Sequence record: OK254198.1
Strand: one strand, 5' to 3'
From: Escherichia phage PSD2001
DNA length: 64,000 bases
A program made the position numbers and the translations under genes. Below are positions 19,984 to 39,619 of the stretch, one piece after another (within the stretch, counting starts at the first letter, position 1; every line of letters begins with the position of its first letter). The notes under the pieces are model-generated. The model saw only the letters and a list, made by a program, of their open reading frames with translations, did not search any database and had not been told where the DNA came from.

Positions 19984-20006
19984 AAAAAGGCCCGAAGGCC
20001 TTTTAT
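19984..20006. terminator. Bidirectional rho-independent terminator
   Basis: GGCC-cgaa-GGCC hairpin flanked by an A-run upstream and a T-run downstream. Confidence 0.5.
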
Positions 20007-20407
20007 TTGAATCGAAGCTGCTCTAACATTTTAATAGCTTGTAGGCGCCCGGCTTCAGTTTTAACCGTAATAATAACATCGCCGCCGGTAACAACGATAT
20101 CCTCTTTTGATTCCTGTTCGGTTATTTCAGAATCATATTCCTTTATCGGGGTTTCTTCAAAATATTTAAATTCATCACCAAAAATAAGACCGGTTCCATT
20201 ACGGCTATGGAAAGAAAATTCAGTTCCATCGATAGTACTAAATTCCGTAACAACATTTGCTTCCATCTTAGTGACTGAAAACTCTTTGGTAGTAACCAAA
20301 TCAATGATAGAGGTTCCTTGTTGGTTCAAAATGCTACCAGGCATACCGACATGTTTAAGGAAGCCATCTAAATCTTTAATGTGATAACTCTTTCCAATTT
20401 TAAACAT
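20003..20407 (-). CDS. Hypothetical protein (about 135 aa)
   Basis: Start placed at the ATG at 20407 (GAGGA upstream), avoiding a 170-nt overlap with the lipoprotein gene; the track start is 20584. Confidence 0.4.
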   Translation of the reverse strand: MFKIGKSYHIKDLDGFLKHVGMPGSILNQQGTSIIDLVTTKEFSVTKMEANVVTEFSTIDGTEFSFHSRNGTGLIFGDEFKYFEETPIKEYDSEITEQESKEDIVVTGGDVIITVKTEAGRLQAIKMLEQLRFK

Positions 20408-20414
20408 AATATCC

Positions 20415-20675
20415 TCATTCGAATCGGATGGTTGAATTCTTAAACAGCAATCCAGAACAAACAGTTCCTTTAACTTTCTTACCAGTTGGCCCGACGGCCG
20501 TAAAGCCTGTATGTTGGAAATCATCTTCAGAGCAACCCATCCAGTTATATCCGGTGATTTGGATTTGCTCATAGCCGTTTGCATCTAATACACGAATGGC
20601 ATTATCTGCATCAGTACAACCAGCCAATGAAACCGCCAGTACCAGTGCTGCAATAGAACGATTAATGTATTTCAT
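20415..20675 (-). CDS. Small lipoprotein (86 aa)
   Basis: Signal peptide with lipobox LAGC (MKYINRSIAALVLAVSLAGC). Confidence 0.5.
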   Translation of the reverse strand: MKYINRSIAALVLAVSLAGCTDADNAIRVLDANGYEQIQITGYNWMGCSEDDFQHTGFTAVGPTGKKVKGTVCSGLLFKNSTIRFE

Positions 20676-29999: not shown

Positions 30000-30281
30000 T
30001 TACAATTTGGCGGCTTGGACTGCTTTATTGGCTTCAGTCATTTTAGCTAGATTTTCAGCAGTAGGATTGACAATGTATTCGGCTGTAGCTTGAGCAAAAA
30101 CATTATGAGTTTCGATTACATTTTTAGCATTTTCAATATTCATATCAATTTCTTGTTTAGATAAATTTTTTAGTTGATTGGCTAAGAGTTCTACAAAGAT
30201 TTCAACATTAGCGTTTTCAATTATATCATTAATATGCTTCTTACGAGCTTTCTTAAGCTGACGTTTATTTAAACGAGGCAT
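30000..30281 (-). CDS. Hypothetical protein (93 aa)
   Basis: Minus-strand ORF between 56 and soc; basic N-terminus. Confidence 0.45.
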   Translation of the reverse strand: MPRLNKRQLKKARKKHINDIIENANVEIFVELLANQLKNLSKQEIDMNIENAKNVIETHNVFAQATAEYIVNPTAENLAKMTEANKAVQAAKL

Positions 30282-30799
30282 TAATAACCTCGGTCCTGAC
30301 GAGCAAAGTTCTCGGCATTTTTCAGGTAATACAGTTTAAAGATTTCTTCTGCAGTCAGTCCAAGACCATGGAACATATTTAGAACGAAATGTAGAATATC
30401 AATCATCTCGAATTTAATTTCTAGCTGGTCTTCAGGAGACAATTCATCAATACGACGATTACGGAATTCAGCATGTTGCGCTTTCCACGGCTTCCAGCAA
30501 CTGGATGCGGCTTTCTCACCATTAGACATGCCACCGAGCGAAGTCAGAAGTTCACGGAATTCGTCGTCAACATAATCTTTCTGGTTGCGAAGCCATGCAA
30601 CAACATCGCCTGCGGTTGCCAATTCATCTGGATGTGCGTTATATTCTGGTTTTTCTGTAGCCAGACGAACCTGCAAAGATTTCTGCATATCAAGCATAAT
30701 CTGCAGAGGGTCATCATTGCCTTTTAGGACATCATTATACGCATCTTGCGCTTTATCAACACCAGCAATCAGTTGAGAACACTCGTTAAAATGAGCCAT
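30281..30799 (-). CDS. 56: dCTP pyrophosphatase (dCTPase/dUTPase) gp56
   Basis: Start at the ATG giving MAHFNEC...; GVDKAQ, DPLQ.MLDMQ, ETAGDVV.W, DDEFRELLTSLG, SPEDQLEIKFE, EEIFKLYYLKN.ENFARQDRGY match T4 gp56. Confidence 0.85.
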   Translation of the reverse strand: MAHFNECSQLIAGVDKAQDAYNDVLKGNDDPLQIMLDMQKSLQVRLATEKPEYNAHPDELATAGDVVAWLRNQKDYVDDEFRELLTSLGGMSNGEKAASSCWKPWKAQHAEFRNRRIDELSPEDQLEIKFEMIDILHFVLNMFHGLGLTAEEIFKLYYLKNAENFARQDRGY

Positions 30800-30859
30800 T
30801 ATATTTTTCCTTATCAATTCATATTGTTTGTATGTTAATTATATCATATTGGTTTAAAG

Positions 30860-37073: not shown

Positions 37074-37402
37074 CTCTTTTTCATTTTAATCTTATCAATT
37101 TCATCTTGTATTTGCATTGTAACACACTTTTCTACATGCACTGCAAGCTCCGCTTTGCGGTCTTCAGAAGGGGTGCCGAAATCAACTGAAACTTTTCCAG
37201 ATGGTTCAATTTTAATTCCGGTTACGTACACAATGTGACTGGACCCATCAGGGAGTGATAACAGAATTTCCTGCCGTACAGTTCCCATGGATTGCCGGAT
37301 AATCTCCAAACTTTTTTCGTAGTAAGGTACAGAAGGAGCCTTAGCTCCCTCCGCATCTTTCTCGAAATTATCTAAATCAGATAAATCGATATCATTCATC
37401 AA
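37058..37402 (-). CDS. 40: Head vertex assembly chaperone gp40
   Basis: 114 aa (same as T4 gp40); lies between uvsX and 41, overlapping the gene 41 start. Confidence 0.6.
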   Translation of the reverse strand: MMNDIDLSDLDNFEKDAEGAKAPSVPYYEKSLEIIRQSMGTVRQEILLSLPDGSSHIVYVTGIKIEPSGKVSVDFGTPSEDRKAELAVHVEKCVTMQIQDEIDKIKMKKRWWKW

Positions 37403-38570
37403 GGTCTTCCATCATATCTAAATCGTTTTCGATATCTGCCGCAGATGGTTTTGCCTTACCTTCAGGAGCAGTGTATTTTTCAACCTTGGAGGCAATAAGC
37501 GCATCAACTTCGGCATCAACAACAGCATTGCTATCGATTGCACCCAGTTGGTAATGGCGTTTGATTGCATCACGGAAAGGTTCGTGTTTGAACAGTGGGC
37601 CCCAGAATTCGGTGCAGTTAGTATCTTTTGCGCGCCATGATTTTTCTTCGCGGACCATTTCACCGGTCTCAACATCAAGATATTCACGGTTATACCAACC
37701 AACTTTTGGTTTCACCACAAATCCGATTTCCATTGCCATATCAAGCAGGCCAGAATACGGGTCAATACCGCCATCGAATTTTACATCAATGAAGAATTTA
37801 CTTTTCTCTTTGACCATACGAGATTTTTCGGCGTTCAGAACAAATTGGAAGCCTTCAAGTTCTTTACCAGTTTCTTTAATCTGGCGTTTGCCGATAATGA
37901 ATACGGTGTCCGCGGAATACATAACACCTGTACCGCCGGTCATAACGGTTTTGCTATACATCTCAATCGTCTCGATTGTATGGTTAACCGCGACACAAGG
38001 AATATCCTTGATGCTAAAATACGGGGTAACAATACGGAACAGAGATTTCAGGGATTTGGCACGAGTCATATCACCAACGACTTTTTCGTTCATTGCATCT
38101 TCTGTTTCTTTTTTCGACGCCATGTTACCGATTGAGTCAATAAAGATAATGACTTTTTCACCACGCTCAATTGCTTCAAGCTGATTAACCATATCAACTT
38201 TCAATTGTTCAACCGACTGGATTGGTGTATGGATAACACGTTCCGGGTCAACTTTCATTGCACGAAGATATGCTTCTGTGATACCAAATTCTGAATCATA
38301 GAACAAACAGATTGCATCGGGGTATTTGTTCATATATGCAGAGACCATCGTTAAACCCATATTGGATTTAAAGTGTTTTGACGGACCAGCAAAAATAGTC
38401 AAACCTGACTGCATACCACCATCTAGTGCACCGCTGATTGCAATGTTCAGCATCGGGATTTTTGTACGAACTACATCTTTATCATTAAAGAACTTGGACT
38501 TGGTAAGAGTCGCGGTCATTTTGGATGTAGAAGCTTTAATCAAACGGGATTTCAAATCTGCAATAGACAT
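37392..38570 (-). CDS. uvsX: Recombinase UvsX (RecA/Rad51 family)
   Basis: 392 aa; near-identical blocks to T4 UvsX (MSIADLKSRLIKASTSK, FAGPSKHFKSN, FIDSIGNMASKKETEDA, KFDGGIDPYSGLLDMA). Confidence 0.92.
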   Translation of the reverse strand: MSIADLKSRLIKASTSKMTATLTKSKFFNDKDVVRTKIPMLNIAISGALDGGMQSGLTIFAGPSKHFKSNMGLTMVSAYMNKYPDAICLFYDSEFGITEAYLRAMKVDPERVIHTPIQSVEQLKVDMVNQLEAIERGEKVIIFIDSIGNMASKKETEDAMNEKVVGDMTRAKSLKSLFRIVTPYFSIKDIPCVAVNHTIETIEMYSKTVMTGGTGVMYSADTVFIIGKRQIKETGKELEGFQFVLNAEKSRMVKEKSKFFIDVKFDGGIDPYSGLLDMAMEIGFVVKPKVGWYNREYLDVETGEMVREEKSWRAKDTNCTEFWGPLFKHEPFRDAIKRHYQLGAIDSNAVVDAEVDALIASKVEKYTAPEGKAKPSAADIENDLDMMEDLDE

Positions 38571-38655
38571 TCATTTTTTCCATAGGCACCATTATATTTT
38601 TCTCACAGGTTTAAGATAGGATAATTATATCACTGTATTTTCAGAGCAATTAATG

Positions 38656-39159
38656 TTAGTTAATACCTTGGCGTGCTTTCTCTTTAGCTACACATTTATT
38701 AATATAGCTCAGACGGTTTTGAGCAGAACGCTGATACATATCGCGATACTCATTGGCTTTTGGAGAACCCGTCTCCGCTGCCTGATAAGCTTCAGCGCGC
38801 ATGATGTTTATCTGCATATTGATATATGACATGCAGACCTGTGAAATCTGGTTAACAGTATCCAGGTCATTTTGTCGCTTGGTTTTTGCTTCCAGCTTGG
38901 CAATGATTTCGTCATGCTTCGCCGCTTGCTCGCGTTTGTACTCAATTTCACGTTGAGCATATTTCGCGCAGTTGTTTCCGCATTGATTGTTGTCGCGTTT
39001 GTAGATAAGTCCAGTACCACCTTTGAAATCAAAGGAACCATTATGCACCTGACGGTCCGCAGCAATTCGCGCTTTACCAATCTCGTTGGCATTAACAACA
39101 TCACCCTGGTAAGCACAACCAGATAGCAGCATAACAGCTGCGATAGCTAACTTTTTCAT
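38656..39159 (-). CDS. Lipoprotein (167 aa) of unknown function
   Basis: Signal peptide with lipobox LLSGC; charged helical mature part with six Cys; AGGAAG Shine-Dalgarno overlaps the stop of the upstream peptide. Confidence 0.55.
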   Translation of the reverse strand: MKKLAIAAVMLLSGCAYQGDVVNANEIGKARIAADRQVHNGSFDFKGGTGLIYKRDNNQCGNNCAKYAQREIEYKREQAAKHDEIIAKLEAKTKRQNDLDTVNQISQVCMSYINMQINIMRAEAYQAAETGSPKANEYRDMYQRSAQNRLSYINKCVAKEKARQGIN

Positions 39160-39167
39160 TTTGCTTC

Positions 39168-39311
39168 CTAATTAAAACATTCATAGCGGGCTTGGAGCCC
39201 CAAAAATACCCAACCCAAAATTAAAGTTGGAATCATATGTGGAGTCATTATTGCCCAGTAGATTGACATACTAAAAAATGCAATCAGTACAATAATTGTA
39301 ATTATCTTCAT
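39168..39311 (-). CDS. Small membrane peptide (47 aa)
   Basis: MKIITIIVLIAFFSMSIYWAIMTPHMIPTLILGWVFLGLQARYECFN; ATG overlaps the imm-like stop (ATGA). Confidence 0.35.
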   Translation of the reverse strand: MKIITIIVLIAFFSMSIYWAIMTPHMIPTLILGWVFLGLQARYECFN

Positions 39312-39550
39312 TTTGCTTCCTTGATGATAATTACTTGTGCGTTTGATTTACGTTCAGCAACGAGTGCCCAGATAAATGCAATAAACCATCCGACCATTGT
39401 CCAACCTAACAGGAGGTTAACAAAGAAGATTCCGCAATTACTTTTGGTTCCACGCAGTAGCGCGATAATCCACGGCAGAAAATATGCTAGTGCAGCCAGG
39501 AAGAAAGAACCTGCACCAAGAACAACAGTACCCGCAATTAATGTTTCCAT
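39308..39550 (-). CDS. imm: Superinfection immunity protein (Imm-like)
   Basis: 80 aa with two transmembrane helices and a GWxxxWFIAFIWA-type motif; immediately downstream of gene 43 as T4 imm. Confidence 0.55.
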   Translation of the reverse strand: METLIAGTVVLGAGSFFLAALAYFLPWIIALLRGTKSNCGIFFVNLLLGWTMVGWFIAFIWALVAERKSNAQVIIIKEAK

Positions 39551-39619
39551 TTTAATATCCTTAAGTTATTCATCAGTTGATGAGGTAATCATACGGCAAT
39601 CCATTGCCGTTGTAAACAC

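Follow-up and report, generated by a model that had tools for sequence, protein, structure and literature searches.

The interval between uvsX and gene 43 of Escherichia phage PSD2001 (sequence record OK254198.1) is best read as the form that the conserved imm locus of T-even phages takes in Gaprivervirus, with accessory proteins that would act in the Imm/Spackle pathway of entry blocking or in envelope protection; we give this reading a probability of about 0.6. The window, which is the whole stretch of 64,000 nucleotides analysed, belongs to a VR7/SP18-like T4-type coliphage of the genus Gaprivervirus, and phages CJ20 and DK-13 are 98% identical to it. The interval shows three minus-strand ORFs, present at the coordinates given by an earlier note on this DNA (Table 1). 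All three are real; purifying selection acts on them, and they are conserved across hundreds of phage genomes. The locus is already known: the VR7 and SP18 annotations carry these genes, which are named imm, 42.1 and VR7ORF049c in VR7. Taken at face value, the earlier note suggested a new envelope module displacing DNA-modification genes, and the evidence points to an ordinary T-even imm locus. Beta-gt and gene 42 are absent from the interval, as claimed, but the wording that the module stands "instead of" them is misleading, because T4 also has imm, an ATGA-coupled 49-aa ORF and Imm.1, which are counterparts of all three genes. The T4 genes listed by the earlier note between uvsX and gene 43 (beta-gt, gene 42 and imm) were an incomplete set, since segA, imm.1 and the unannotated 49-aa ORF are also there. 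The gene order is that of the Dhakavirus type (gene 43, imm, 42.1, lipoprotein gene, modification cassette, uvsX) minus the cassette. Hundreds of T4-like genomes encode lipoproteins of the Imm.1 type and the 47-aa Y02C peptide, conserved proteins without known function that annotators often miss or misname.

Table 1. Features of the uvsX-gene 43 interval, with positions in the window
Feature	Position	Strand	Remarks
uvsX flank	37392-38570		
Lipoprotein-uvsX spacer	38571..38655	(-)	85 bp; the window passes straight into uvsX
TATAAT in the lipoprotein-uvsX spacer	38624-38629		TGCT motif 12 nt upstream; read directly
167-aa predicted outer-membrane lipoprotein, homologue of VR7ORF049c and JS98 orf43	38656-39159	(-)	phrog_1754; lipobox
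15-nt translation-initiation sequence AGGAAGCAAAATGAA, copy 1	39155..39169	(-)	Heads the lipoprotein gene
Gene 42.1 (T4 Y02C family), 47-aa membrane peptide	39168-39311	(-)	phrog_3610; ATG overlaps the imm stop as ATGA
RNA hairpin at the imm/42.1 junction	39298..39334	(-)	13-nt inverted repeat, 92% complementary
15-nt translation-initiation sequence AGGAAGCAAAATGAA, copy 2	39307-39321	(-)	Heads 42.1
imm, 80-aa inner-membrane superinfection immunity protein, T4 Imm orthologue	39308-39550	(-)	PF14373, phrog_1039
Sigma-70/T4-early-type promoter candidate	39588..39616	(-)	TTTACA, 17-nt spacer, TATGAT; between the gene 43 stop and imm
7-bp inverted repeat CGGCAAT-GG-ATTGCCG	39594-39609		Inside the spacer of the promoter candidate
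Gene 43 flank	39620-42334		

Genes and expression signals of the imm locus

The Imm assignment made by the earlier note is correct: the window protein matches the Pfam family PF14373 Imm_superinfect (E=1e-17, 64.2 bits, with a cut-off of 27.9) and phrog_1039 (E=1.9e-30), and it shares 54% identity with T4 Imm. The Imm proteins of the window, T4, JS98, MM02 and VR7 all have R33 and W50. In T4 Imm, the changes R33A and W50A reduce exclusion, and the protein binds the tape-measure protein gp29 of the superinfecting phage (bioRxiv 10.64898/2026.03.06.709160). Imm shows protein-level matches in 1230 phage records, and the comparison of imm between the window and VR7 gives a ratio of synonymous to non-synonymous codon changes of 16:11.

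The peptide encoded by 42.1 shows two hydrophobic stretches (residues 1-23 and 25-41), matches phrog_3610 along residues 1-47 (E=7.6e-27) and is 57% identical to the T4 49-aa ORF over 30 aa (BLASTP, E=3e-13). Its metagenomic homologues belong to the precomputed Pfam family PF26865 Phage_T4_Y02C; the Pfam profile search with the window peptide itself gave no match. Matches at the protein level were found in 573 phage records, the ratio of synonymous to non-synonymous changes between the window and VR7 is 4:1, and residues I17, Y18, P24, M26, P28, T29, I31, W34, Q40, C45 and N47 are invariant. The overlap of the imm stop and the 42.1 start as ATGA (39308-39311 in the window, and 7374-7377 of L004 in T4) is also present in JS98 and in the metagenomic relatives L015 and L016. 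Several GenBank records, such as those of CJ20 and the T4 RefSeq, carry the 47-aa ORF without annotation. The Emp peptide of Mosigvirus, described in a preprint, is the product of a different gene, near motA.

The product of the third gene starts with MKKLAIAAVMLLSGC and contains the lipobox reported by the earlier note, LSGC at residues 12-15 with Ala at position +2, in a signal formed by MKK and a hydrophobic stretch at residues 3-18; the protein has four cysteines besides that of the lipobox. Its probable destination is the inner leaflet of the outer membrane, because none of the aligned lipobox-bearing family members shows Asp at +2. The lipoprotein matches phrog_1754 (E=1.2e-46, residues 1-161), as does T4 Imm.1 (E=6.1e-43, residues 1-124), and a profile comparison of the two with hhalign gave a probability of 96% (E=1.5e-9) over only 31 N-terminal columns, which contain the shared post-cleavage motif GC..QG.VVN..[DE][VI]GK. 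The Pfam family DUF5481 (PF17578) scores T4 Imm.1 at E=5e-72 and the Mosigvirus protein at E=4e-9, and does not match the lipoproteins of the window, JS98 or CBH8 at E<=1; homology of the window lipoprotein to T4 Imm.1 is thus only partly confirmed by the profiles. Matches at the protein level were found in 122 phage records, and the ratio of synonymous to non-synonymous changes against VR7 is 19:3. A word-index search returned eight proteins, and an exhaustive profile search only 18 cluster representatives among 1.84 billion proteins; the 14 representatives that were retrieved have the appearance of small lipoproteins belonging to this family, and the gene neighbourhood, checked for three of them, is in each case that of a T4-like phage.

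AlphaFold2 models of the lipoprotein reached a pLDDT of 69 and then of 79.5, and the latter predicts a tether, a beta-hairpin and a long helical hairpin. The Foldseek comparison that the earlier note proposed gave no match pointing to a function: the best hit in the PDB has E=2, with no functional lead, and among the BFVD viral models only close family members (JS10, CIP9) were found. Pfam searches returned only sub-threshold noise (FerB, DUF553, PoNi_N). The lipoprotein therefore falls only in families without known function, and not in a well-characterised family of unrelated function, an outcome that the earlier note had counted against its proposal.

The promoter candidate upstream of imm has 10 of 12 consensus matches in a consensus scan and probably drives the imm operon, and the interval contains no late-promoter motif. 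Each small ORF is preceded by a strong Shine-Dalgarno sequence. The hairpin at the imm/42.1 junction has a folding energy of -9.7 kcal/mol (z=-4.4) and is kept in VR7 (-10.9 kcal/mol, z=-5.2); it is absent in JS98, L015 and T4. Its loop contains the Shine-Dalgarno sequence and its 3' arm the AUG of 42.1, so it is likely a translational-coupling device. The two copies of the 15-nt initiation sequence form an exact direct repeat with a spacing of 152 nt. The earlier note described three translationally coupled genes, which is borne out for the ATGA overlap of imm and the 47-aa ORF; the lipoprotein ATG does not overlap, being located 8 nt downstream of the 47-aa stop, which is covered by the Shine-Dalgarno sequence AGGAAG. 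The Rfam search of the whole window gave no match.

Gene 42 and the spacer next to uvsX

The spacer between the lipoprotein gene and uvsX differs in length between Gaprivervirus genomes, and its TGCT and TATAAT motifs may form a middle promoter of the MotA type that serves uvsX. The absence of gene 42 in spite of the presence of gene 56, pointed out by the earlier note, holds: T4 gp42 gives no tblastn match in the 64-kb window (best E=2.6), where a gp56-type dUTPase_2 protein is encoded at 30281-30817. The search for a gene 42 homologue that the note had asked for is likewise negative with the gp42-like protein of JS98 in the window by tblastn, and with both queries in positions 1-100 kb and 118-167 kb of VR7. 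Possible substitutes for gene 42 were also considered and rejected: VR7 ORF134c-136c, 147c and 148c are HNH-like or have no known function, VR7ORF006c is by eye of the HNH/endonuclease VII type and is absent from the window, and several window ORFs without assignment show no informative Pfam match. VR7 carries both alc and denB. Gene 42 appears to be missing throughout the Gaprivervirus genome. The literature already raises this absence as an open question, for which the imm interval offers no explanation, and the lack of gene 42 alongside gp56 is a more surprising fact of this neighbourhood than the imm locus itself.

Possible roles of the peptide and the lipoprotein

It is reasonable to propose that the peptide and the lipoprotein act in exclusion or in the envelope. 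On this proposal, a short operon would be transcribed from the early-type promoter that immediately follows gene 43, and Imm would block genome translocation of the superinfecting phage at the inner membrane. The gp42.1 (Y02C) membrane peptide would be made by translational coupling to imm, as in T4, and the Imm.1-class lipoprotein would hold a helical rod, with a 69-residue helix, in the periplasm from the outer membrane. Peptide and lipoprotein would then be separable, non-essential layers and not obligate partners of Imm. A tighter arrangement, in which the three proteins form an envelope-spanning entry barrier whose periplasmic rod meets the tail tube or tape measure while Imm and the peptide stop the inner-membrane pore, seems unlikely to us; if true, it would give a function to two long-ignored T-even ORFs and add a third layer to exclusion. 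Since these genes repeatedly lie by imm, and in Mosigvirus also by spackle, exclusion assays on them would be inexpensive and well motivated, the more so after the preprint's report that Imm binds the tape-measure protein. No functional study of Imm.1, 42.1 or the lipoprotein (searched as imm.1, DUF5481, Y02C and phrog_1754) was found in the searchable literature, and the three proteins have no match in PADLOC-DB at E<=1.

The linkage of the accessory genes to imm bears on the alternative that peptide and lipoprotein are unrelated to exclusion, being early envelope proteins with some other task (host-envelope takeover, lysis timing or defence against unrelated phages or host systems, for instance) that are near imm by ancestral order downstream of gene 43. 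In Winklervirus and Kanagawavirus the lipoprotein gene is located right after gene 43 with no imm between them, and in these two genera and in Mosigvirus 42.1 is flanked by the genes for an arabinose-5-phosphate isomerase and for a protein of about 560 aa, away from imm. In Kanagawavirus PEi20 the lipoprotein gene and 42.1 are present, and a search of the first 34.6 kb gave no Imm homologue, a result that speaks against obligate partners. Imm, in turn, is found in hundreds of phages without the lipoprotein, its 1230 records comparing with about 780 for both lipoprotein types together, and from a plasmid it excludes T4 without the other two proteins (bioRxiv 10.64898/2026.03.06.709160). The adjacency to imm may be inherited synteny and need not mean a shared function. 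Against this, the imm.1-like lipoprotein gene of Mosigvirus moved together with imm to a position next to spackle, a contiguity of imm.1, imm and spackle that favours an exclusion-related role, and the ATGA coupling of imm and 42.1 is maintained in T4, JS98, Gaprivervirus and distant metagenomic relatives. We regard the unrelated role as possible, if rather doubtful, and keep the reading of a T-even imm locus with accessory proteins in the entry-blocking or envelope-protection pathway.

Three further explanations were considered and rejected. The lipoprotein is small, early and probably located in the outer membrane of a lytic phage, features that would suit an exclusion protein that masks the outer-membrane receptor of the phage, in the manner of T5 Llp or phi80 Cor, by binding its periplasmic face and inactivating it, and the lipoprotein weakly matches the Cor family phrog_1119 (E=0.023). 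This match, however, is confined to the signal peptide (residues 1-17), the structure searches linked the lipoprotein neither to Llp nor to any other solved protein, and the gene is not linked to a tail-fibre gene. The T4-type Imm.1 is also 95-100% identical in about 500 Tequatrovirus records, where a receptor-specific blocker should vary more; since the receptors of Tequatrovirus include OmpC, Tsx, FadL, OmpF and OmpA, receptor masking is less expected and we consider it quite improbable. Still less credible is that lipoprotein and peptide are lysis components, either an o-spanin/i-spanin-like pair or a lysis-inhibition factor. A small lipoprotein gene beside a small membrane-protein gene is superficially like a spanin pair, but VR7 has pseT.2 and pseT.3 (the spanin genes of T4) as well as t, rI and rIII elsewhere, the genes appear to form an early transcription unit without late-promoter motif, and the peptide differs from an i-spanin in having two hydrophobic segments and hardly any periplasmic part. 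That the small ORFs are chance reading frames that are not expressed is hardly conceivable: the gaps in the GenBank annotation would agree with it, but the excess of synonymous changes, the 50-60% conservation at the protein level across five genera with invariant residues, the dedicated PHROG and Pfam families and the strong Shine-Dalgarno sequence before every start all contradict it.

Comparison with known exclusion proteins and T-even loci

T5 Llp and the Cor proteins of phi80 and N15 are, like the window lipoprotein, small phage-encoded envelope lipoproteins, and they give a precedent for the exclusion of secondary phages; they show no similarity to it in sequence or fold beyond the signal peptide, and the window gene is not linked to a receptor-binding gene. 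T4 Spackle (gp61.3) is an early periplasmic exclusion factor of T-even phages that is also present in VR7, and it differs from the lipoprotein in being a soluble periplasmic inhibitor of the gp5 lysozyme (PF25676), with no similarity detected between them. In Mosigvirus the gene encoding Spackle is contiguous with imm.1 and imm: MM02 shows a cluster of imm.1-like gene, imm and sp between genes 41 and 61, away from gene 43, in which the phrog_1754 lipoprotein gene adjoins imm as in the window. The Mosigvirus lipoprotein is of the T4 (DUF5481) type, unlike that of the window, and 42.1 has been left behind in this genus, where its start in MM02 overlaps as ATGA with the upstream gene, encoding the arabinose-5-phosphate isomerase.

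The T4 locus shows the order gene 43, imm.1, imm, Y02C/42.1 and gene 42. It shares with the window the families PF14373/phrog_1039, phrog_3610 and phrog_1754; in both phages the locus comes immediately after gene 43, imm and the gene for the small peptide are coupled through ATGA, and Imm has R33 and W50. The T4 locus differs in that the lipoprotein gene is upstream of imm, and not downstream of 42.1, in that gene 42, beta-gt and segA follow before uvsX, and in that the imm/42.1 junction has no hairpin; Imm.1 is also shorter (125 aa, DUF5481) and aligns to the window lipoprotein only over the signal peptide and about 16 mature residues. The closest arrangement is that of Dhakavirus JS98, where orf45 (imm), orf44 and orf43 follow gene 43 in an order identical to that of the window, and the metagenomic relatives L015 and L016 show the same order of imm, 42.1 and lipoprotein gene. 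The identity of the lipoprotein to that of the window is 46-53% in JS98 and 25% in the metagenomic protein P0016. In JS98 and the metagenomic relatives, unlike in the window, these genes are followed by one encoding an NTP_transferase protein of about 557 aa, isomerase-like and kinase-like genes, a gp42-like thymidylate-synthase homologue and uvsX, and the metagenomic contigs with the 25%-identical lipoprotein contain NTP_transferase and Thymidylat_synt genes after the lipoprotein gene.

The three-gene set and its expression signals

The earlier note had described an operon of three translationally coupled genes between uvsX and gene 43, in place of beta-gt and gene 42, and regarded it as a candidate superinfection-exclusion or envelope-remodelling module. 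The observation is confirmed, with all three ORFs where it had placed them, and the interpretation is supported in part: the three genes are the usual imm locus of T-even phages, annotated already in close relatives, and each has a T4 counterpart. The minus-strand order around the interval is 41, 40, uvsX, three small ORFs, 43, regA, 62 and 44. In a similarity search, the 1.2-kb region matched 495 phage records; the top full-length matches (98% identity) belong to Gaprivervirus phages, such as CJ20, DK-13, SP18 and VR7. In VR7 the genes already bear the names imm, 42.1 and VR7ORF049c, the last with the remark "similar to JS98 ORF043c". Translational coupling, claimed for the whole set, is probable between imm and 42.1, where the 42.1 ATG overlaps the imm stop codon (ATGA); the lipoprotein gene starts 8 nt beyond the peptide stop codon, a close spacing without overlap.

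Features of the window discussed in the text
Feature	Position	Strand	Remarks
Early-type promoter candidate	39616-39588	minus	sequence-inferred
7-bp inverted repeat	39594-39609		CGGCAAT-GG-ATTGCCG; occupies the spacer of the promoter candidate, directly after the gene 43 stop codon
imm	39308-39550	minus	80 aa; PF14373, 64 bits (cut-off 27.9); phrog_1039, E=2e-30
RNA hairpin, imm/42.1 junction	39298-39334	minus	-9.7 kcal/mol, z=-4.4
Exact 15-nt repeat	39155-39169 and 39307-39321	minus	AGGAAGCAAAATGAA (coding strand); ribosome-binding site and start of lipoprotein gene and 42.1
42.1	39168-39311	minus	47 aa
Lipoprotein gene	38656-39159	minus	167 aa; basic N-terminus, hydrophobic core, lipobox LSGC, Ala at +2
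Lipoprotein gene-uvsX spacer	38571-38655		85 bp
gp56-type protein	30281-30817		
193-aa ORF	20003-20584		no family match

Transcription probably starts at the early-type promoter, and no late-promoter motif was found in the interval. The inverted repeat could form a hairpin at which the gene 43 transcript ends or is processed, or could be a regulatory site; the 15-nt repeat could be no more than a preferred initiation sequence, or could mark a joint at which gene modules are swapped. In the junction hairpin, the loop holds the Shine-Dalgarno sequence of 42.1 and the stem buries the 42.1 AUG; VR7 keeps the hairpin with loop differences, and the corresponding junctions of T4, JS98 and the metagenomic contig L015 do not have it. 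Among Gaprivervirus genomes, the distance from the lipoprotein gene to uvsX is variable: CJ20 has about 230 bp (L002 1572-1800) and phage 212 about 340 bp (L003 1572-1913), with two additional small ORFs of 35 and 42 aa annotated in the latter.

Imm, 42.1 and the lipoprotein

The Imm-like call holds, since the Pfam and PHROG matches of the 80-aa protein make it an Imm family member. The tape-measure protein, gp29, is a binding partner of T4 Imm, and the changes R33A and W50A reduce exclusion by T4 Imm expressed alone from a plasmid (bioRxiv 10.64898/2026.03.06.709160). Both R33 and W50 are invariant, also in the window protein, so this protein very probably acts as T4 Imm does. The Imm proteins of the window and SP18 are 100% identical. 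Against VR7 (L001 3965-4207), imm shows 14% nucleotide divergence and 11 changes in 80 residues, unlike 42.1, the lipoprotein gene and uvsX, which show only 3-5% divergence. This suggests that imm alone was exchanged by recombination, or that diversifying selection acts on it, perhaps in step with the tape-measure protein.

The hydrophobic peptide of the earlier note is likewise found, with two hydrophobic segments read from the sequence. Synonymous changes exceed non-synonymous ones relative to VR7 in 42.1 (4:1) and in the lipoprotein gene (19:3), so both are real genes. The T4 counterpart of 42.1, a 49-aa ORF, aligns with the window peptide at 57% identity across 30 residues (E=3e-13) and has the same ATGA overlap with the imm stop codon; like the window peptide, it matches phrog_3610. 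In metagenomic homologues the Pfam label is PF26865 Phage_T4_Y02C. This 47-49-aa ORF is without annotation in T4 RefSeq and CJ20. The phage collection contains 1230 records of Imm, 573 of 42.1, 122 of the window-type lipoprotein and 657 of T4-type Imm.1.

The lipoprotein call is borne out by the N-terminus of the 167-aa protein, which, having no Asp at +2, probably goes to the outer membrane; four cysteines lie beyond the lipobox Cys. T4 Imm.1 is also a lipoprotein (lipobox LAGC), both proteins share the motif QG.VVN..[DE][VI]GK after the lipidated Cys, and their phrog_1754 matches span the full lengths (E=6e-43 for T4 Imm.1, E=1e-46 for the window lipoprotein). Profile-profile alignment of the window family, built from a 20-sequence alignment, with T4/Mosigvirus Imm.1 gives 96% probability over 31 N-terminal columns only. 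The window lipoprotein has no match to Pfam DUF5481, the T4 Imm.1 family, and a fold search of viral models with it did not recover T4 Imm.1. Because independent homology support stops at the N-terminus, it is termed Imm.1-class and is not a proven orthologue of T4 Imm.1. The family is very small: a search of 1.84 billion proteins yielded only 18 cluster representatives. Fourteen were retrieved and resemble small lipoproteins of this family, and all three homologues examined in genomic context lie in T4-like phage gene neighbourhoods. The AlphaFold2 model (mean pLDDT 79.5, 20-sequence alignment) shows a disordered tether, a helix (residues 24-38), a beta-hairpin (41-55) with a conserved GGTGLxY motif, a CxxxC motif (60-64), a 69-residue helix (61-129) and two helices (135-163) packed back onto the long helix. 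Across the family, no variation is seen at G48, G50, Y53, G61, C109 and C156, and very little at C60 and C64. PDB searches returned generic helical matches only, so the fold offers no functional clue. Wrong annotations of these genes have spread through records: T4 RefSeq names Imm.1 (L004 7637-8014) "iduronate sulfatase", an annotation error, and some homologues of the window lipoprotein are mislabelled "capsid and scaffold protein" or "DNA endonuclease IV".

An auxiliary role of 42.1 and the lipoprotein in entry blocking or envelope protection is favoured by their recurrent association with imm and by the joint relocation of lipoprotein and imm genes beside spackle in Mosigvirus. The partnership cannot be obligate, since for each gene there are lineages that have it and lack the others, and since Imm is active by itself. 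The lipoprotein is unlikely to mask a receptor as T5 Llp does: it shows no similarity to Llp or Cor, and T4-type Imm.1 is 95-100% identical across about 500 records of Tequatrovirus, a genus in which several different receptors are in use. Both proteins are uncharacterised and simple to test.

Gene 42 and gene order among T4-like phages

Gene 42 is missing from the interval, as the earlier note stated, and the absence extends past it: in the wider search that the note proposed, tblastn with T4 gp42 and with the JS98 gp42-like protein found no match in the window and none in the 149 kb of VR7 covered (1-100 kb and 118-167 kb). A gp56-type protein is encoded in the window, in line with the note. 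In the regions inspected, the VR7 annotation lists 56, denA, denB and alc, and no gene 42. Gaprivervirus appears to have no gene 42 (dCMP hydroxymethylase) homologue genome-wide, and no substitute enzyme was found among the unassigned ORFs scanned. The genus has been described as without any known hm-dCMP enzyme, with an unknown base possible (PMC8056088; PMC12115623). VR7 encodes, immediately upstream of gene 39, a protein of 231 aa (L005 4816-5511) that from its sequence looks HNH/endonuclease VII-like; it is absent from the window, where a 193-aa ORF takes its place and only the first 72 residues resemble VR7 sequence.

Winklervirus and Kanagawavirus show the order 43, lipoprotein gene, arabinose-5-phosphate isomerase, 42.1 and an about 560-aa protein, and imm is not in their uvsX-43 interval. 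In the Kanagawavirus PEi20 (Edwardsiella phage), the first 34.6 kb (early region) holds spackle, gene 42, a phrog_1754 lipoprotein and 42.1, and no Imm homologue was detected there. Mosigvirus MM02 has the isomerase, an ATGA-coupled 42.1 and the about 560-aa protein beside gene 43, and an imm.1-type lipoprotein gene, imm and spackle, contiguous, between genes 41 and 61. In L014, from a metagenomic relative, a gene for a 469-aa protein (575-1984) stands between the lipoprotein gene and uvsX; this protein matches PHROG families that carry homing or HNH endonuclease annotations (phrog_3339, E=2e-136), and its gene is counted as another sign that the interval is an insertion hotspot.

Dhakavirus JS98 shows the order 43, imm, 42.1, lipoprotein gene, an about 557-aa protein, isomerase-like, kinase-like and gp42-like proteins, the last 24.5% identical to T4 gp42 (E=1e-7). 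Two metagenomic contigs (L015 and L016) begin with this order, their lipoprotein being 25% identical to that of the window; L015 runs on to uvsX and its downstream genes encode Pfam NTP_transferase and Thymidylat_synt proteins. The T4 interval reads 43, imm.1, imm, the unannotated 49-aa ORF, 42, beta-gt, segA and uvsX. The Gaprivervirus window has the JS98 order minus the modification cassette; this lost or absent cassette is the Gaprivervirus-specific trait, and has already been published.
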